Source of the DNA: Thermococcus sp.
GTDB lineage: Archaea > Methanobacteriota_B > Thermococci > Thermococcales > Thermococcaceae
NCBI RefSeq assembly: GCF_027012695.1
Contig: NZ_JALUYR010000143.1
Location: forward strand, 1-33,321
Direction: 5' to 3'
DNA length: 33,321 nucleotides
Shown one piece after another: positions 10,150-18,995 of this stretch. The notes beneath the pieces are model-generated. The model was not told the origin of the DNA and did not search any database. It was given only the letters and a program-made list of their open reading frames with translations. Both the position numbers and the translations under genes were made by a program. Position 1 is the first letter of the stretch. Every line of letters starts with the position of its first letter.

Positions 10150-10602
10150 TTACCATCCTCTTCTTCCGCGTCCATAGCCGCCACCGCGGCCCCTTCCTCT
10201 ACCCATACCATGACCCATTCCTGGACCATGGCCTGCTCCGTATCCCCCGGGAACTCCTTCCGGGCTTGAAAGCTCACCCCTAAGAAACGCCTCAACCGCC
10301 TCGCGGACGGTCATGGTTGCAGGTGCCGAGACCATTTTTATGCCCGCTGCCTGGAGAACGCCGTAGGCATTTGGCCCGAATTCCCCGGATATTACCACGT
10401 CCGCGCCGTGGTCAATCACGAACTGCGCCGCGGTGACTCCCGCACCTCTGGCTTGGGAGTATCCCGGATTCGGGAGCACCTGAACGTTGATTATCTCCCC
10501 GTTCTCAACGTCCACTATCGTGAAGGTTGGGGTCCTCCCAAAGGACGGGTTCACCCTGTCGTCGAGGCCTCCGTTAACCGTTGACACGATTATCCTCATC
10601 AA
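10150..10602 (-). CDS. NifX/NafY-like dinitrogenase FeMo-cofactor-binding domain protein (Pfam Nitro_FeMo-Co-like, COG1433) with a C-terminal Gly/Arg-rich tail
   Basis: - 'MRIIVSTVNGGLDDRVNPSFGRTPTFTIVDVENGEI...GAGVTAAQFVIDHGADVVISGEFGPNAYGVLQAAGIKM' is a typical pattern.
- Tail 'GMGHGMGRGRGRGGGYGRGRRGW'. Confidence 0.85.
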   Translation of the reverse strand: MMRIIVSTVNGGLDDRVNPSFGRTPTFTIVDVENGEIINVQVLPNPGYSQARGAGVTAAQFVIDHGADVVISGEFGPNAYGVLQAAGIKMVSAPATMTVREAVEAFLRGELSSPEGVPGGYGAGHGPGMGHGMGRGRGRGGGYGRGRRGW

Positions 10603-10644
10603 ACCACCTCCATGGGAGTTGGGGAAACCGAAGTTAAAAAAGTT

Positions 10645-10653
10645 TGCATAAGC
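10645..10653. promoter_or_regulatory. Half or imperfect copy (TGCATAAGC) of the GTGC(A/T)TATGCAC palindrome, abutting the BRE/TATA (minus-strand sense: aaacttttttaac) of the NifX-like gene 10150-10602
   Basis: Read directly; reverse complement 'gagcttatgcaaacttttttaac'. Confidence 0.45.
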
Positions 10654-10884
10654 TCAAAATGGTTCAAACCAAATTCCTGGGTTGGATCTCAGGAATGCCC
10701 TCAGTACGAGCAGAATCACCAGACCAAGTGCATACGGCAGGGCAACGAGGAACAGCTTGAACAGGAAGTACAGTATTCCGAGCAGGATTAACAGGTCAAG
10801 AATCCCGTAAAAGCCTCCGAAGGGATAAGCTCTCCTGCCGTAATAACCCCCTCTCCCATAACCTCTACCCATTCCGCGTGGCAT
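10654..10884 (-). CDS. Small (76 aa) membrane protein: Gly/Arg/Tyr-rich N-terminus followed by two predicted TM helices
   Basis: - 'MPRGMGRGYGRGGYYGRRAYPFGGFYGILDLLILLGILYFLFKLFLVALPYALGLVILLVLRAFL'.
- GGAGG SD 7 nt upstream of the ATG.
- The 182-codon ORF in the track is an upstream read-through of this frame. Confidence 0.6.
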   Translation of the reverse strand: MPRGMGRGYGRGGYYGRRAYPFGGFYGILDLLILLGILYFLFKLFLVALPYALGLVILLVLRAFLRSNPGIWFEPF

Positions 10885-10915
10885 GTCAATGCCTCCAGAA
10901 ATTAAAGGAAAGGCC

Positions 10916-11518
10916 TCACCACCAGCCGTAGAACCAGCGGAGGGCCCTTCTGCCCGGCTGACCGGGCTCTGGACAGTAACCGAGCCTGGCTCCCCAGCCT
11001 CTTCCTCTGCCCCATCCTCCACCGCGTCTCCATCCGCGACCCCAGCCCCTGCCCCAACCGGGGCCGAAGCCGTAGGCCGGGTACGGTGGGTAGGCGGGTG
11101 CAGTCGGGTACGGGCCGTAGGCTGGCATTGGAGTTGCTGGAGCCGTTGGCGGGACTGCCTGAGGACCCGGTACTGTGAACTGCCCGGCCGTTCCACTGAC
11201 AACGGCCTTTATGGCCTCCTCAACTGGAGTTCCCGGCGAGACCTGATAGAGCTTTATCCCCGCCGCCTGTATGGCTCCAAGGGCGTTCGGGCCGACCTGC
11301 GGAGCTATTATCGCTTCAACGCCTTCGTTGATGAGCGTCTGAACCGCCATTGGTCCGGCTCCGCCCCCCGCCGCCGAAGCTGGATTCTGGATGATCTTCT
11401 CGCTGATCACGTTGCCGTTCTCGTCTACTTCGACTATGTAGAACGCGGGCGCGCGGGCGAACACCGGTGCAACGGTATCGTTAAGCCCTCCACCGTTGGT
11501 GGGTATCGCGATCTTCAT
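10916..11518 (-). CDS. NifX/NafY-like FeMo-cofactor-binding domain protein with a Pro/Ala/Tyr linker and a C-terminal (GWGR)n tail
   Basis: - 'MKIAIPTNGGGLNDTVAPVFARAPAFYIVEVDENGNV...AGPMAVQTLINEGVEAIIAPQVGPNALGAIQAAGIKLY'.
- Tail 'GFGPGWGRGWGRGWRRGGGWGRGRGWG'.
- GGAGGTGA SD precedes the ATG (start 11518, or 11524). Confidence 0.85.
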   Translation of the reverse strand: MKIAIPTNGGGLNDTVAPVFARAPAFYIVEVDENGNVISEKIIQNPASAAGGGAGPMAVQTLINEGVEAIIAPQVGPNALGAIQAAGIKLYQVSPGTPVEEAIKAVVSGTAGQFTVPGPQAVPPTAPATPMPAYGPYPTAPAYPPYPAYGFGPGWGRGWGRGWRRGGGWGRGRGWGARLGYCPEPGQPGRRALRWFYGWW

Positions 11519-11539
11519 ACGCATCACCTCCGATATTTT

Positions 11540-11551
11540 GTGCATATGCAC
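11540..11551. promoter_or_regulatory. Perfect 12-bp palindrome GTGCATATGCAC in the divergent promoter region between the NifX-like gene (-) and the AsdA-like gene (+), followed by TTAAACTTTTCG (11558-11569)
   Basis: - Read directly.
- The same two elements recur at 17153-17180. Confidence 0.55.
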
Positions 11552-11609
11552 AGGATTTAAACTTTTCGAATGGGCAAAGGTTTTATTGTGAGCGGATAAA
11601 GTTCGATGG

Positions 11610-13259: not shown

Positions 13260-13875
13260 GCCCTTTGAGAAGCACCGGGAAAGGTACGAAAGCTGGTTCG
13301 AGAGGCACCGCTATGCCTACCTGTCGGAGCTTGAGGCGGTGAGGAGGCTTTTGCCGAAGGAAGGCAAAGGTGCAGAGATAGGCGTTGGAACCGGTCGCTT
13401 TGCAGCTCCTTTAGGCATAAAGCTCGGCGTCGAGCCTTCGAAGGCGATGGCGGAAATAGCTAAAAAAAGGGGCATTGAGGTCATCGAAGGCGTTGCGGAA
13501 AACCTCCCCTTCCCCGATGAGAGCCTCGACTATCTTTTGATGGTCACAACGATATGCTTCGTCGACGACCCTGAGAGGGCTTTAAGAGAGGCCTACCGTG
13601 TGCTAAAACCCGGAGGAGCTTTGATAATAGGCTTCGTCGACAAAAACAGCCCGATAGGGAAGTATTATGAAGAGCACAAAGAGGAGAGCGTCTTTTACCG
13701 CGACGCGAGGTTCTTCTCGACGGAGGAACTCCTTGAGCTTCTAAAAAAGGTCGGCTTCAGAAAGTTCGAGATAGTCCAGACACTTTTCCATCGGCTGGAC
13801 GAGATAAAGGAAATCGAACCCGTCAAGCCCGGCTACGGCGAGGGGAGCTTCGTGGTTATAAAGGCCGTGAAGTGA
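13246..13875 (+). CDS. Class I SAM-dependent methyltransferase (Methyltransf_11-like)
   Basis: - 'GAEIGVGTGRFA' is motif I.
- 'VLKPGGALIIGF'.
- Overlaps the upstream gene by 14 nt. Confidence 0.8.
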   Translation: MPKVEPFEKHRERYESWFERHRYAYLSELEAVRRLLPKEGKGAEIGVGTGRFAAPLGIKLGVEPSKAMAEIAKKRGIEVIEGVAENLPFPDESLDYLLMVTTICFVDDPERALREAYRVLKPGGALIIGFVDKNSPIGKYYEEHKEESVFYRDARFFSTEELLELLKKVGFRKFEIVQTLFHRLDEIKEIEPVKPGYGEGSFVVIKAVK

Positions 13876-14621
13876 TAGCTGTGCTGCTGACCAAGATAAA
13901 GAGAAAAGCCCTAAAACTCGCCAGTGGCCTTGAGCTGGTGGATTTCGGCTTTGCCTTACCCTACACATGGGTTTTACTCAAAGGGCCGGAGGGAAGGGCA
14001 CTTGGCGTTGCCATGACCCTGCCGGAGGAAGTGCAGAGATACAGGAACTCGATAAGCGAACCTTCACTCAATGCCTTCATCGAGAGGGCCGACAGCCTGA
14101 ACGTCATCGAGAGAACCTTAGGACTGGCTGCAATAAACGCGGTTTCACAGTATCACATAGACCTGAGCGACGCTGAATTTACCGATGTGCTCGAACTCCT
14201 GCCCGAAAACGCTGGCAAAGTGGCCCTAATAGGCAACATGCCGCCCCTTGCCAAAGCGCTCCGAGGGAGGGGCTTTGAGGTCTTCATCTTTGAGCGAAAC
14301 CCAAAGCTCTGGGACAAAGACACCTACAGCGACGCTCTGGAATACCACCTTCTCCCCGAGATGGACACGGTGGTAGCGAGCGCCAGCTGTTTGGCCAACG
14401 GAACCATAGACCTCCTTCTGGATAGGGCGAAGAAAGCTGAGCTCTTCGTCCTCACAGGCCCAACGGGCCAGCTTTTGCCGGAGTTTCTCAGGGGAACGGG
14501 CATTACTCACCTGGCATCAATGAAGGTAATTGAGGTCGAGCGGGCACTTTTGGGGTTGAAGCTTGGAAGTTTCAGGGGTTTTGAGGAGGGCAACAGAAAG
14601 TACGTGGTGAGAGTTGAATGA
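13872..14621 (+). CDS. Rossmann-like DUF364/DUF4213-type protein (putative chelatase-like domain; assignment tentative)
   Basis: - 249 aa.
- 'KVALIGNMPPLAKALRGRGFEVFIFERNP' is a Rossmann-like segment.
- GTGA overlap with the upstream gene and ATGA overlap with the downstream gene. Confidence 0.5.
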   Translation: MIAVLLTKIKRKALKLASGLELVDFGFALPYTWVLLKGPEGRALGVAMTLPEEVQRYRNSISEPSLNAFIERADSLNVIERTLGLAAINAVSQYHIDLSDAEFTDVLELLPENAGKVALIGNMPPLAKALRGRGFEVFIFERNPKLWDKDTYSDALEYHLLPEMDTVVASASCLANGTIDLLLDRAKKAELFVLTGPTGQLLPEFLRGTGITHLASMKVIEVERALLGLKLGSFRGFEEGNRKYVVRVE

Positions 14622-15268
14622 AACTCACAATCCTCAACGACAACACCCCGGCAAAGGGCCTCATCAACGACTGGGGCTGGAGCGTTCTGGTTGAGAGCAA
14701 GTATCGCTTCCTCTTCGATGCCGACACGAGGGGAGAGGTTTTAGCCCATAACTCAAAGGTTCTTGGGGCTTCACTGAGAAACCTCGACTTCGCGGTTTTA
14801 AGCCACTGGCACTACGACCACTACGGCGGTTTTCCGTTGATTGCCCGGCTCAATCCGGGTCTGAGGCTCTACGCACCGCCTGGCGGATGGATAGAGGGGC
14901 TGAGCGTTTTTGAAGTCATTGACGCTGGAAGAATAGCCGATGGAATATGGACTTCTGGGGCTCTGGAGGGTTTCGAGCACGCCGTTGGCGTTGAGACTCC
15001 CTCTGGGTTGGTAATCATAGTCGGCTGTTCCCATCCGGGCGTTGACAGGCTCACCGAGGCCCTCCTGAAGGTTTCGGGCTATGAGAGGGCCTATCTCGTA
15101 ATAGGTGGCTTCCATTATCCGTCGCGTAGAACCCTCGATAAACTTGCTAAAACTGCCGAGTTCATAGCCCCGGCCCACTGCTCCGGTGATGAGGCGAAGG
15201 CCTACGTGAGGAAAAACTACCCGGAAAAGTTCGTTGGAGTGAAAACTGGAACAATAATCGAGGTGTGA
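14618..15268 (+). CDS. Metallo-beta-lactamase-fold hydrolase
   Basis: - 'LSHWHYDHYGG' is an HxHxDH motif.
- 'IIVGCSHPG'. Confidence 0.85.
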   Translation: MKLTILNDNTPAKGLINDWGWSVLVESKYRFLFDADTRGEVLAHNSKVLGASLRNLDFAVLSHWHYDHYGGFPLIARLNPGLRLYAPPGGWIEGLSVFEVIDAGRIADGIWTSGALEGFEHAVGVETPSGLVIIVGCSHPGVDRLTEALLKVSGYERAYLVIGGFHYPSRRTLDKLAKTAEFIAPAHCSGDEAKAYVRKNYPEKFVGVKTGTIIEV

Positions 15269-15794
15269 TTCCGAGGAATTCAGCCAGCAGTTTGAAAAAC
15301 GCCGTCTTTCGCCCGTTTGGCGTTATGAAGCGGTGAAGAACGAGTTCCTCCCGGATTCTATCGTTTCTTAACTCCTCTGGGAGCTCGTTGAAACTCCTGG
15401 CCTTTGTCAGGGCCCTAACAACGTCCCATCCGCCGGGAAGGAGGGAGTTAAAGTAGTCCCTAAGCCAGTGTTCATCAATTGAGCGGAGGAAAAGCTCCCC
15501 GGCCCGCGAAAGCCTGTAGTAGGTGTGGTGCTTGTGCACCTCAAAGGCCTTTTTGAACCTCGCCCTGCTCCGCTTTATCGCGCTTCCCGAGTCCCTTTCG
15601 ATAAGACCTACCTCGATAAGGTCTTTTATCGCGCCCTCGATGAGGGGAAGCTCTAGCTCGCTCATCTTCGCCATCATCTTAGCGTAATCAACACCGGCCT
15701 TCTTGAGGTGAGCCAGAACATAGAGATGACCAGGAAGGAGTTCAAGGCCTTGGAACGAAACGGGGCGTTCTTTTCGCGTATCTCCTCCACTCAT
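15162..15794 (-). CDS. Predicted winged-helix DNA-binding protein. The gene model is uncertain: it overlaps both neighbouring genes.
   Basis: - 'LPLIEGAIKDLIEVGLIERDSGSAIKRSRARF...HHTYYRLSRAGELFL' is a wHTH-like pattern.
- The ORF extends about 105 nt into the convergent MBL gene and about 50-90 nt into the upstream ICMT-like gene. Confidence 0.45.
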   Translation of the reverse strand: MSGGDTRKERPVSFQGLELLPGHLYVLAHLKKAGVDYAKMMAKMSELELPLIEGAIKDLIEVGLIERDSGSAIKRSRARFKKAFEVHKHHTYYRLSRAGELFLRSIDEHWLRDYFNSLLPGGWDVVRALTKARSFNELPEELRNDRIREELVLHRFITPNGRKTAFFKLLAEFLGITPRLLFQFSLQRTFPGSFSSRRPSPHHRSSGPGL

Positions 15795-16170
15795 CGCCGA
15801 ACCTCCTTTCGAGGGCTCTCTCCTCCTCACCTATAAATGCCAAAACCGAGAGCCAGTAGATAACCGGAAGGAAGAGCATGAAGCCACCTACCACCAGGGA
15901 AAAGCCCGGGATGATTAGAAAGCCCCAGATGGAGTATATTGGATGCCTAACCCTTGAGTAACAGCCCTTAGTCAAAAGCTCTCCCCTTGAGTAGGCCCTC
16001 GAAACCTGGAGGTAGCAGACGAGCCACAGAAAAAGGCCCGAGAGGAGTAAAACAAGTCCCGGTAGAGGGAAAGAGATGCCCGGCCTGAGCCTTGAATTCA
16101 GGTAAAGCGCAAAGAGAGCATATAAACCTGAAAAAAGGCCGACCTTTGGCTCAATCCCCCAGAACCTCAT
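15742..16170 (-). CDS. Isoprenylcysteine carboxyl methyltransferase (ICMT)/phospholipid methyltransferase-family integral membrane protein
   Basis: - 'YSRVRHPIYSIWGF...EERALERRFGDEWRRYAKRTPRFVP' is an ICMT-type C-terminal signature.
- Multiple TM helices. Confidence 0.7.
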   Translation of the reverse strand: MRFWGIEPKVGLFSGLYALFALYLNSRLRPGISFPLPGLVLLLSGLFLWLVCYLQVSRAYSRGELLTKGCYSRVRHPIYSIWGFLIIPGFSLVVGGFMLFLPVIYWLSVLAFIGEEERALERRFGDEWRRYAKRTPRFVPRP

Positions 16171-16172
16171 GG

Positions 16173-16592
16173 TTATTCCTCTATCGGGGGTTTCTCGGCT
16201 TTCTTGGCCTGAACCTGCTCCCAGAGTTCATCGAAGTTCTCAAGGAGCCTCTGGAGGGCGAGCTTTAGATCTCTCGTCCTCGTAAAGAAGGCCACCTTGT
16301 TGGTCTTGTCCCTTATTCTCAAAAAGTTCGGCCCCATTCTGAAAGCCGCTAAAACGTCAACGTCCAAAAGCTGGCTCACAACTGCCTTGAACTTCCTCGG
16401 GTCGCCGTGGCCTTCATCGTGCTCTTCTTCAAAGTCTTTGGCTTTGTTCGGCCTCTTTTCCAGGAGTTTAACGCTCCCGTCTTCACAGACCTCGTAGATG
16501 GCAAAGAACTCCGAGTCGCCGTAGTGAGCATCTATGAGGTGTTCATCGTCCTCCATTCCAAAGGCAACCTTCAGGCATCTCATATCAACCAC
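16173..16592 (-). CDS. NifX/NafY-like FeMo-cofactor-binding domain protein (third paralogue, no low-complexity tail)
   Basis: 'MRCLKVAFGMEDDEHLIDAHYGDSEFFAIYEV...' is the typical N-terminal pattern of COG1433 proteins. Confidence 0.7.
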   Translation of the reverse strand: MVDMRCLKVAFGMEDDEHLIDAHYGDSEFFAIYEVCEDGSVKLLEKRPNKAKDFEEEHDEGHGDPRKFKAVVSQLLDVDVLAAFRMGPNFLRIRDKTNKVAFFTRTRDLKLALQRLLENFDELWEQVQAKKAEKPPIEE

Positions 16593-16638: not shown

Positions 16639-17127
16639 CTAAAGGTCTATGTCCTCGAACCACTGTTCGAGCAGGTCCTCGGGTATCTCATCCTCCTCGA
16701 CCTGCTCCTGCATGAACCGCCACATCTCCAGGTGTCTCTCGAGTATCTCCGCGTGCTCCGCACTTATATCGGCCAGCCAGCGGAAGAGCCTTCTTGACCT
16801 CTCGTCCTTCGCCTTCATTGAGAGTTCCCTGTACAGGGCTTCGCTCGCCCTTTCCGCTTCTATCGCAAGGCGGTAGTAGTCCTCAACGGTTGCGTCCGGA
16901 TCCTCTATGGCCTTTTCGAGGAAACTGAGTGCCGTCTCGACGTCTTTAATGGCTCTCAGATTTCCCACGTCAGCCCTGATCTTCTCGAGCAGCCTGGCGT
17001 TTCTCTCGGAGTGACTTGCGAGCAATCTGAGATCATCTTTAAAGTCCCGGGGTACGAGCTTCTCTATGGCCCTGTAGAGAATTGCCTTCTTCCTCTCCAG
17101 TTCCACCACGCGCCTCATCTTCGTCAC
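16639..17127 (-). CDS. Ferritin-like/rubrerythrin-family four-helix-bundle protein (tentative)
   Basis: - ExxH-type motifs 'ISAEHAEILERH' and 'IEAERASEALY'.
- Helical, acidic.
- GTG start, with BRE/TATA 'cgaaaagtttaa' upstream. Confidence 0.45.
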   Translation of the reverse strand: MTKMRRVVELERKKAILYRAIEKLVPRDFKDDLRLLASHSERNARLLEKIRADVGNLRAIKDVETALSFLEKAIEDPDATVEDYYRLAIEAERASEALYRELSMKAKDERSRRLFRWLADISAEHAEILERHLEMWRFMQEQVEEDEIPEDLLEQWFEDIDL

Positions 17128-17168: not shown

Positions 17169-17180
17169 GTGCTTATGCAC
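17169..17180. promoter_or_regulatory. Near-palindrome GTGCTTATGCAC in the divergent promoter between the ferritin-like gene (-) and the MinD-ferredoxin gene (+).
- Preceded by TTAAACTTTTCG (17153-17164).
- Followed by the BRE/TATA aaaacttttaacc.
   Basis: Read directly; same two motifs as at 11540-11569. Confidence 0.55.
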
Positions 17181-17226: not shown

Positions 17227-18108
17227 TTGCGGATAGCTGTAAGCGGCGGTAAAGGAGGTACCGGAAAATCAACCGTCGCGGTAAACCTCGCCGTTGCGCT
17301 TAGAAAACTCGGTGCCCGGCTTACGATGGCCGATCTGGACGTGGAGACACCTAACGACCATCTTCTCCTCGGGATCGAGCTGGCCGTCGGGGAACCGGTG
17401 AACCAGTTTATGCCGAAGTTCGACTACTCGAAGTGCACCAAGTGCAGGAAATGTGCCGAGGCCTGCGAGGAGCACGCCATTATAACGCTAAGGGACGGGA
17501 CGCCCTTTCTCATGCCGAACCTCTGTTCCGGTTGCAGGGCCTGTGAGATAGTCTGTCCCGTGCCCGGGGCCATACTGGAGGATTACCGGGTAGTGGGGCA
17601 TATCCACATCACCCCAACCCCCTACGGCTTCACACTGGTCACCGGCGTCCTTCGGGAGGGAGAGGAGAGGGCCCTGCCCCTGGTGGTCGAGGCAAAGCGA
17701 CGGGCCATTCGGATCCAGAGGGAAGAGGGAGGCTTACTCCTCATTGACACGGCCGCGGGAACAGGGAACACCGTTGCCAAGGCGGTGGAGTTTTCCGATC
17801 TACTCATAGCGGTTACCGAGCCGACCCCACCGGGTGTACACGACACGAAACTAATCCTCGAACTTGGAAGGCTGATGGGAATTCCTACCTGGATCGTGAT
17901 AAACAGGGCCGACCTCGGAGAGAGGGGGAGGGTTTACGAGTTGGCTAAAAAGTATGACGCTGAGGTCGTTGCCGAGATACCCTACAGCGAGAACATCGTG
18001 AGGAGCTATGTTGGGGGAAGGCCGATAGTCCTGACGGACTATCCGGAGGCGAAGATCTTTGAAGAACTCGCCGGAAAGGTTCTCTCATTCCTAGGGGGTG
18101 GTGGGTGA
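17227..18108 (+). CDS. MinD/ParA-superfamily P-loop ATPase with inserted 2x[4Fe-4S] ferredoxin domain (COG1149-like)
   Basis: - 'IAVSGGKGGTGKST' is a deviant Walker A.
- 'CTKCRKCAEACEE' and 'CSGCRACEIVCP' are cysteine clusters.
- Probable TTG start at 17227, preceded by GGGGGTGA. Confidence 0.85.
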   Translation: MRIAVSGGKGGTGKSTVAVNLAVALRKLGARLTMADLDVETPNDHLLLGIELAVGEPVNQFMPKFDYSKCTKCRKCAEACEEHAIITLRDGTPFLMPNLCSGCRACEIVCPVPGAILEDYRVVGHIHITPTPYGFTLVTGVLREGEERALPLVVEAKRRAIRIQREEGGLLLIDTAAGTGNTVAKAVEFSDLLIAVTEPTPPGVHDTKLILELGRLMGIPTWIVINRADLGERGRVYELAKKYDAEVVAEIPYSENIVRSYVGGRPIVLTDYPEAKIFEELAGKVLSFLGGGG

Positions 18109-18995
18109 TGCAGATAGCAATAGCGAGCGGCAAGGGCGGCGTCGGGAAGAGCAGCATAACGGCTTCACTCCTCTACCTCCTGAAGGACGATTACCGCTTT
18201 GTGGCTGTGGATGCCGATGCGGAGGCTCCAAACCTCGGCCTGCTCCTCGGCGTTGAGGAATGGGAAGAGGAAAGGGAGCACATAGGGGCTAAGGTAGCAC
18301 GCATAAGTACGGAGAACTGCATAAGGTGCGGCATCTGCTATGAGCGCTGCCCCTACGAGAGCATCTACGTTGATGCCAACGGCAGCTACGTGGTCAACGA
18401 GCTGACCTGTGAGGGCTGCAACGTCTGCGGCCTGGTCTGTCCCGTGAGGGGTACGATTACCCTCGAGACGGTTCGCTCCGGTGTTATAAGGAAGGCAACA
18501 ACCAAGTACGGCTTTCCTATAATCTCGGCCCAGCTCGATGTTGGAAGGCCGGAGAGCGGCAAGCTCGTTACGGAGGAGAAGGAGTGGGCGAAGAAGGTGA
18601 TGGATGAGTTAAACCTGGAGCACATGATAGTTGACTCCGCGGCTGGAATCGGCTGTCAGGTTATAGCAAGCTTAGGGGGAGCCGATGTTGCGATACTCAT
18701 AGCCGAGCCAACGCCCGCTTCCCTCTCCGACGTTCGGAGGGCCTACAAAATCGTCCAGCACTTCAGGGAGCCTGCTTACCTGATAATCAACAAGGCCGAC
18801 CTGAACCCGGGCTTTACCGCTTTAAAAGAGTGGGCTGAAAGCGAGGGGATTCCGATACTCGGTGAGGTACCCTACGACCGCGCCATTCCGGAGAGCATGG
18901 TTCTAATGAAGCCGGTGGTTGAGGCCTTTCCGGATTCAAGGGCAGCTAAAGCCATCAGGAAAATAGCAGGGGGGATGAGGGAGATACTTGGCTGA
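18105..18995 (+). CDS. MinD/ParA-superfamily P-loop ATPase with inserted 2x[4Fe-4S] ferredoxin domain (paralogue of the upstream gene)
   Basis: - 'IAIASGKGGVGKSS'.
- 'CIRCGICYERCP' and 'CEGCNVCGLVCP'.
- ATGA overlap with the upstream gene. Confidence 0.88.
   Translation: MMQIAIASGKGGVGKSSITASLLYLLKDDYRFVAVDADAEAPNLGLLLGVEEWEEEREHIGAKVARISTENCIRCGICYERCPYESIYVDANGSYVVNELTCEGCNVCGLVCPVRGTITLETVRSGVIRKATTKYGFPIISAQLDVGRPESGKLVTEEKEWAKKVMDELNLEHMIVDSAAGIGCQVIASLGGADVAILIAEPTPASLSDVRRAYKIVQHFREPAYLIINKADLNPGFTALKEWAESEGIPILGEVPYDRAIPESMVLMKPVVEAFPDSRAAKAIRKIAGGMREILG

Follow-up and report, generated by a model that had tools for sequence, protein, structure and literature searches.

We analysed a 33,321-bp stretch of a Thermococcus sp. 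contig (54% GC), here called the window, which carries a small gene on its minus strand at positions 10654..10884. The gene lies between two others on the same strand, which we assign below to issA/sipA (10916..11518) and to an IssA paralogue (10150..10599). It encodes a protein of 76 amino acids plus stop (MPRGMGRGYGRGGYYGRRAYPFGGFYGILDLLILLGILYFLFKLFLVALPYALGLVILLVLRAFLRSNPGIWFEPF), with the ATG at 10884-10882 and the TGA at 10656-10654, and is preceded by a Shine-Dalgarno (SD) sequence, GGAGG (10892..10896, minus strand), placed 7 nt 5' of the ATG and inside the 31-nt spacer that separates the gene from issA (10885-10915). A first-pass annotation of the window, made from the sequence alone, had called this 76-codon open reading frame (ORF) together with its SD, and both are exact; it had also counted the product among the small membrane proteins that are routinely missed, and in this it erred. 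An identical protein is present in RefSeq (WP_297465663.1, “hypothetical protein [Thermococcus sp.]”) on the window's own contig, for which a second pipeline gives a 72-aa version beginning at Met5. Annotations already list dozens of its orthologues as hypothetical or uncharacterised proteins, including those of T. radiotolerans, T. cleftensis (CL1_1784), T. guaymasensis (X802_07500), T. chitonophagus, T. nautili, T. aggregans, T. camini and T. indicus.

Because spurious ORFs are abundant in the window, the length of the ORF is in itself no proof of a gene, and the case rests on comparison. Across the syntenic loci of related genomes, the frame of the small gene is the sole one of the six that stays open in all 13 of 13 loci, and an SD-like GGAGG or GAGGT precedes the start in nearly all of them, the MPRG start of the protein being kept as well. 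The first-pass annotation had proposed that the pattern of synonymous and non-synonymous change be examined in relatives, and this pattern is that of purifying selection: synonymous sites are essentially saturated (median pS, the proportion of synonymous differences, 0.72), the non-synonymous counterpart pN has a median of 0.29, and dN/dS has a median of 0.21 and a maximum of 0.41. That the ORF is a real gene is, on this evidence, virtually certain.

The first-pass annotation was also right in regarding the gene as hidden inside a longer, spurious ORF of 182 codons (10654..11202, minus strand), which extends the small gene in frame by 106 codons to a TTG at 11202, across the 3' end of issA in a different frame. 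The in-frame extension upstream of the small gene amounts to 108 codons in the window versus 0-19 codons in 12 other loci, and since it is not conserved the longer ORF is an artefact. Two antisense ORFs (10612-10791 and 10682-10810, plus strand) were rejected as genes, stops interrupting their frames in most related loci.

Among 5.8 billion proteins searched, 51 proved to be homologues, 52-82 aa long (expectation values, E, from 7e-30 to 4e-5), and every one of these with an organism name is from Thermococcus; an exhaustive profile search of 1.84 billion representative proteins gave 26 clusters at 50% identity. Family members are about 60-83 aa long and share significant similarity over their full length, as does the window protein, which also carries the family signature, in which an MPRGxGRGYGR N-terminus leads into a hydrophobic core of ~35-38 residues that has K-L at its centre. 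Judged by these similarities, the family is genuine but narrow. No Pfam or NCBIfam model matches the small protein; hits to DUF5562 (E = 0.098) and Tgi2PP (E = 0.17) fall far short of the cut-offs and were disregarded. Literature searches around PF2026, TON_0920, DUF5320, IssA/thioferrate and SipA in Thermococcus found no paper on the small protein.

Both flanking proteins, which had been described as NifX-like paralogues, carry a PF02579 domain (Nitro_FeMo-Co; IPR003731), but the label is too vague for them. The product of the gene at 10916..11518 (200 aa per RefSeq) carries PF02579 at its N-terminus (E = 1.5e-22). Over 99% of its length it shows 62% identity with a 179-aa P. furiosus protein, IssA (PF2025, P0155), whose length agrees with the published size (PMC5524996). 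It is likewise 54% identical over 99% to PAP_06520 of Pa. pacificus, which has been named SipA (PMC6981617). Behind the globular domain there follow a Pro-rich linker and a tail of GWGRG repeats with the protein's single Cys in LGYCP, ending in RRALRWFYGWW (in sequence ...PGPQAVPPTAPATPMPAYGPYPTAPAYPPYPAYGFGPGWGRGWGRGW...LGYCP...GWW), an architecture that agrees with the published description of IssA (PMC5524996) and with the P. furiosus sequence; the C-terminal motif is nearly alike in the two (GWGARLGYCPEPGQPGRRALRWFYGWW in the window, GWGSILGYCPWTGMPSRRALRWYYGWW in P. furiosus). On these similarities we assign the upstream flank as the IssA/SipA orthologue. At window 11519-11527, its longest-ORF start (GTG/ATG, 11524-11527) lies too near the SD GGAGGTG, and RefSeq and the orthologue alignment use the ATG at 11516-11518 (MKIAIPT..., 200 aa).

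Given that the upstream flank is an IssA orthologue, the functional reading of the locus shifts to thioferrate iron-sulfur storage. The iron and sulfur that IssA stores take the form of anionic thioferrate, in nanoparticles of 20-300 nm (PMC5524996, Vaccaro et al. 2017), and the protein's cationic, aromatic, Gly-rich C-terminal tail (in the window GWGRGWGRGWRRGGGWGRGRGWGARLGYCPEPGQPGRRALRWFYGWW, 10919..11059, minus strand) has been proposed to bind thioferrate electrostatically (PMC5524996). The downstream flank (149 aa, WP_297465661.1, an exact RefSeq match) also combines PF02579 (E = 1.2e-23) with a tail, here of (G-M/Y-G-R)n repeats with GW at the end, and has orthologues in all loci.

The small protein begins with a cationic module of Gly, Arg and aromatic residues (residues 1-26, 10807..10884, minus strand), which was delimited by alignment, composition and AlphaFold2. 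It contains five Arg and no acidic residue, is rich in Gly, Tyr and Phe, and has M1, R3, G4, R7 and Y9 conserved in at least 90% of 47 homologues. The first-pass annotation had noted that this N-terminus repeats the GR-rich module of the neighbours, and shuffling bears this out: residues 1-17 (MPRGMGRGYGRGGYYGR) are identical at 13 of 17 positions to the downstream paralogue's tail (MGHGMGRGRGRGGGYGR), and just 0.05% of shuffled N-termini score as high; the score against the tail of the upstream IssA is equalled by 1.6% of shuffles. Measured in this way, the N-terminus truly resembles the GR-rich tails of the flanking proteins. Like IssA/SipA (PF2025), it is cationic, Gly-rich and aromatic with an xGRG periodicity; unlike IssA, the small protein has no IPR003731/PF02579 domain, Pro-rich linker or LGYCPWTG motif, and carries a long hydrophobic helix. 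IssA itself gave no sign of membrane association (PMC5524996), in contrast to the insertion predicted for the small protein. A Tat-type (twin-arginine translocation) signal peptide at the RR of residues 17-18 was rejected, as this RR is not conserved in the alignment.

The module is followed by a hydrophobic core (residues 27-62, 10699..10806, minus strand), for which hydropathy, family core statistics and AlphaFold2 predict one or more membrane-embedded helices. By hydropathy it is a single continuous stretch broken only by D30 and K43; the K43-L44 pair is invariant among close homologues, and in more distant members position 43 is taken by H, S, E, R, Y, I or V. Over 70 family members, median core length is 38 residues and the median flanking charges are +4 on the N-terminal and +3 on the C-terminal side. 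We consider it very probable that the small protein is membrane-embedded. As to its topology, two hydrophobic helices had been proposed in the first-pass annotation, of which the hydrophobicity stands and the number is unproven: AlphaFold2, run on the 47-sequence alignment, predicts one helix over residues 25-66 with no turn (31 residues with a pLDDT confidence score of at least 90), preceded by an N-terminal module of low pLDDT without secondary structure, that is, predicted to be disordered. The positive charge on both sides favours a hairpin with both termini inside, as would the central polar K43, set against halves of 15 and 18 residues and no helix breaker at K43; on these predictions a hairpin with two transmembrane segments is not established.

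The small gene is found directly 3' of issA, on the same strand, in all 16 of the 16 carrier Thermococcales loci examined, with spacers of 5-73 nt. A pattern-based scan of contigs, which relies on a single peptide pattern, gave nine loci, and further loci came from exact-protein look-ups. The pairs of issA and small gene span three genera, Thermococcus (including T. barophilus), Pyrococcus (P. yayanosii) and Palaeococcus (Pa. ferrophilus). The order issA, small gene, paralogue holds in nine of 12 related loci, the paralogue lying 2.4-3.5 kb further on in the other three (L008, L011, L012). The sandwiching of the small gene between two paralogues, which the first-pass annotation had noted, is therefore not the conserved feature; the invariant unit is the pair of issA and small gene. 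Neither P. furiosus nor Pa. pacificus has the small gene at its issA locus, and a profile search of six-frame ORFs for remnants of it in these two returned a best E of 0.49. In Pa. pacificus the paralogue directly follows issA. In P. furiosus COM1 (CP003685, L013 4697-6572) the site of the small gene after issA is occupied by an insertion sequence (IS) element with TnpB (OrfB_IS605/Cas12f-like) and resolvase/MerR-type genes, and the loss of the small gene there appears to coincide with an IS insertion. The divergent MinD/CbiA-Fer4 gene is broken into several short ORFs (68, 70, 124 and 115 aa), and the locus as a whole seems degraded relative to that of Thermococcus.

The arrangement of promoter-like elements points the same way. 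A conserved element at 10633..10653 (minus strand), consisting of the half-palindrome GCTTATGC and then the TATA-like AAACTTTTTTAAC, precedes the paralogue and is near-identical in nine loci. In its general form, GC(A/T)TATGCAAA followed by CTTTTTTAAG, the element begins right after the stop of the small gene and is also present in Pa. pacificus, which has no small ORF. As the paralogue has a promoter-like element of its own, the likely unit is issA plus the small gene, with the paralogue co-regulated but separate; the T6 run in AAACTTTTTTAAC could serve as a terminator of the issA-small gene transcript. The short spacer and the gene's own SD suggest that the small gene is probably co-transcribed with issA. 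The spacer in the window and its equivalents in L002, L006, L007 and L008 are T-rich, with runs of T4-T6 in several, and such runs could act as partial terminators in archaea, which would keep the small protein below the very abundant IssA.

A perfect palindrome, GTGCATATGCAC (11540..11551, no strand assigned), lies between a TATA-like TTTAAA (11556-11561) and the issA SD and is a candidate operator; it has four matches in the window versus 0.4 expected. The palindrome (TGTGCATATGCACA(AAAT)) stands at the same position in all Thermococcales issA loci for which upstream sequence was examined, including those of P. furiosus (L013:3970) and Pa. pacificus (L014:3964). A related GC(A/T)TATGCA(A/C)AA, with CTTTT(T)AA behind it, is found ahead of the IssA paralogue (10646-10653) and, in the window, a MinD/CbiA-Fer4 ATPase gene (17169-17180). 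The palindrome resembles the operator of a shared, perhaps sulfide- or iron-responsive, regulon, for which it is a candidate, and it differs from the SurR motif. One candidate for the protein that binds it is the DUF134 protein encoded at 6806-7162.

In T. onnurineus, TON_0919 (SipA) and TON_0921, both annotated “iron-molybdenum cofactor-binding protein,” were detected solely in cells grown on elemental sulfur (S0; PMC4463584), and in Pa. pacificus PAP_06520 and the adjacent PAP_06515 head the table of the ten most S0-induced genes (PMC6981617). The T. onnurineus orthologue of the small gene would be TON_0920, which is placed between TON_0919 and TON_0921 by numbering and synteny and is not directly confirmed. 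According to the literature the locus responds to S0 or sulfide by induction, and the small gene would be S0-induced as well. The small protein shares this S0-induced neighbourhood with SipB (PF2026), the second sulfur-induced protein alongside SipA/IssA, and an identity of the two was considered and ruled out. The SipB homologue of T. onnurineus is TON_0916, an “ATPase C-terminus” (PMC4463584), which is no 76-aa hydrophobic protein but matches part of a MinD/CbiA-Fer4 ATPase of the kind encoded, in two copies, at 17227-18995 of the window. Fer4/CbiA fragments also make up the genes divergent from P. furiosus issA, and the small-protein profile has no match in the 8.5-kb P. furiosus issA locus.

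More distant members of the family were found in two metagenome loci, L018 and L019, which by sequence divergence are not from Thermococcales. Each adjoins a stand-alone tail protein (L019 3255-3533; L018 3214-3606) made of GWGRG repeats and the motif G(A/T)xLGYCPWTG(M/L)PRGWRW, without a globular domain, the L018 copy also having a charged coiled-coil-like end. Both family members lie one or two genes from a PF02579 protein, which in L019 is fused to DUF5320 (PF17253). This pattern of fusion and fission ties the small protein to the tail module and not to the NifX-like fold. The IssA tail appears to be an independent, mobile module. In L019 there are also a putative DUF134 regulator starting MPRGMRGRGRGRR (2632-2964) and a Zn-ribbon protein with an RG-repeat tail at its end (GRGRGAGQGRGQGRGMGRF; 4147-4374), so that RG-repeat segments decorate several otherwise unrelated proteins within one cluster.

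DUF5320 (PF17253) comprises RG-rich small proteins and tails that occur with PF02579 and DUF134 genes in anaerobes, and the small protein is like them in its MPRG-type start, its Gly/Arg-rich low complexity and its neighbourhood; some IssA-like relatives fuse PF17253 to PF02579 (P0190 and the L019 gene). The PF17253 hidden Markov model has no match, however, to the whole small protein (E up to 1), nor to a close homologue or the tails (E up to 10), and membership was rejected. The DUF5320-bearing proteins encountered have a charged coiled-coil-like segment at their end, not a hydrophobic helix.

Beside issA, then, stands a gene under selection whose product has a tail-like motif and a hydrophobic helix. 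The IssA locus itself is known, and the small protein is a previously undescribed accessory to the IssA/SipA system. The first-pass annotation had suggested a membrane anchor or partner for the flanking proteins; its basis is strengthened by the genuine hydrophobic-protein gene, the invariable linkage to issA and the stand-alone-tail neighbours. The role, together with membrane insertion, topology and physical interaction, is inferred. We propose a small (65-83 aa) membrane-embedded accessory protein of the Thermococcales IssA iron-sulfur storage locus, in which the ~35-residue hydrophobic helix would anchor the protein in the cytoplasmic membrane with the N-terminus on the cytoplasmic side. 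The disordered, cationic Gly/Arg/aromatic peptide of ~25 residues has a chemistry like that of the IssA-type tails proposed to wrap anionic thioferrate. As the likeliest mechanism, it would bind thioferrate, the Arg/aromatic tails of the two flanking proteins, or both, and IssA-thioferrate particles would in this way be docked, nucleated or organised at the membrane. A functional partnership of some kind with IssA is what we lean towards. The complete picture, of a membrane-embedded accessory that docks or nucleates particles through its tail-like peptide, we hold only tentatively, at somewhat below an even chance, and a specific tether acting via the N-terminal peptide is, taken by itself, rather doubtful.

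Several observations weigh against this proposal. IssA is made or induced in P. furiosus and Pa. pacificus, neither of which has the small gene; the gene must therefore be dispensable for the formation of IssA particles, and this dispensability argues for a modulatory or positional role over an essential one. The RG-rich likeness joins low-complexity sequences and could reflect convergent composition. The single helix of AlphaFold2, 42 residues without a hairpin, does not fit the N-in/C-in arrangement, and if the protein were single-pass its Arg-rich C-terminus would lie outside the cell. The T-rich spacers between issA and the small gene could be terminators or promoters in several loci. The small protein is not in the T. 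onnurineus proteome tables (PMC4463584), and no paper was found that mentions TON_0920.

It is possible, if on the unlikely side, that this is a real issA-linked membrane protein with a role other than tethering: it could be a modulator of an iron or sulfide transporter, a sensor of envelope or metal stress, or a factor that limits or caps particle growth, the RG-rich N-terminus being a mere cytoplasmic positive anchor. Conserved linkage implies a shared process alone and no specific mechanism, many small membrane proteins have positive charge at both ends, the hydrophobic core persists in the family's most distant members with much of the RG motif gone, and IssA works without the small protein in P. 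furiosus. Within Thermococcales, however, MPRGxGRGYGR is among the best-conserved parts of the protein, its periodicity matches that of the neighbours' tails above shuffled controls, and the adjacency to a stand-alone tail-motif protein in the distant loci points specifically to the tail module.

Far less probable is a protein that is not inserted in the membrane at all, its helix self-associating or lying buried, as part of a structural or nucleating core, within the IssA-thioferrate particle that resists detergent. The uninterrupted 42-residue helix does exceed a normal transmembrane span, and IssA particles sediment with membranes and resist 1% sodium dodecyl sulfate (PMC5524996); yet a ~35-residue helix made nearly all of Leu, Ile, Val and Phe and flanked by Arg clusters is typical of a lipid-embedded segment, and purified P. 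furiosus particles held IssA alone (PMC5524996), though P. furiosus lacks the small gene. That the ORF is spurious or a non-coding spacer has next to no chance, for although it is short, of low complexity at its 5' end, outside any Pfam or NCBIfam family and with no proteomic detection on record, it is ruled out by the frame conservation, with the other five frames closed, and by the constraint on non-synonymous sites, alongside a conserved start codon and SD and homologues in three genera and beyond.

Magnetosome and ferrosome systems use membrane proteins to organise iron-mineral compartments. The proposed docking role would parallel these only as a functional analogy, and only if the tether model holds, in that a membrane component would position an intracellular iron store; homology is not expected, and IssA particles are described as protein-thioferrate nanoparticles without a membrane (PMC5524996).

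The wider neighbourhood of the small gene is related to metals and Fe-S. The window encodes a DUF134 helix-turn-helix protein (6806-7162, minus strand), a DUF364/DUF4213 protein (putative heavy-metal chelation; 13872-14621, plus strand), a DUF2250 protein (15162-15830, minus), a third PF02579 protein and a rubrerythrin-like protein (16173-16592 and 16639-17127, minus), and two tandem MinD/CbiA ATPases with 4Fe-4S inserts (17227-18108 and 18105-18995, plus); similar gene sets surround the T. cleftensis and T. guaymasensis loci. With its PF02579 proteins, MinD/Mrp-type ATPases with Fer4 inserts, DUF134, DUF2250 and DUF364, this neighbourhood parallels the ORP (orange protein) cluster of Desulfovibrio vulgaris (Orp3, 4, 5, 8, 9; PMC6345978), and the PF02579 domains of both flanks match the C-terminal domain of MrpORP. 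The ORP complex is listed with five proteins and no small membrane subunit among them (PMC6345978), and the ORP proteins differ in having no RG tails and in their sigma54-dependent, bacterial regulation.

The small protein is a candidate for the organisation step of IssA particles, that is, their nucleation, positioning or mobilisation, and its gene, with a deletion of 230 bp, is a concrete genetic handle in tractable Thermococcus species. P. furiosus, the species of all the IssA work that we found, lacks it, which would account for its having gone unnoticed. The protein further directs attention to a wider RG-repeat module across the NifX-like/DUF5320/DUF134 clusters of anaerobes. In its boldest form, which we regard as speculative and on balance unlikely, the proposal would be that most Thermococcales encode beside issA a dedicated membrane receptor or nucleator binding thioferrate by an IssA-tail-like peptide, that particles are normally assembled or tethered at the membrane, P. 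furiosus being an atypical loss, and, more broadly, that the xGRG/aromatic repeat is a portable thioferrate-address tag. The repeat in question is common to IssA, its paralogue and the small protein, and elsewhere in archaea to stand-alone tails, a DUF134 regulator and a Zn-ribbon protein; if the proposal were true, the iron-sulfur particles of Thermococcales would constitute an organelle-like arrangement at the cytoplasmic membrane.

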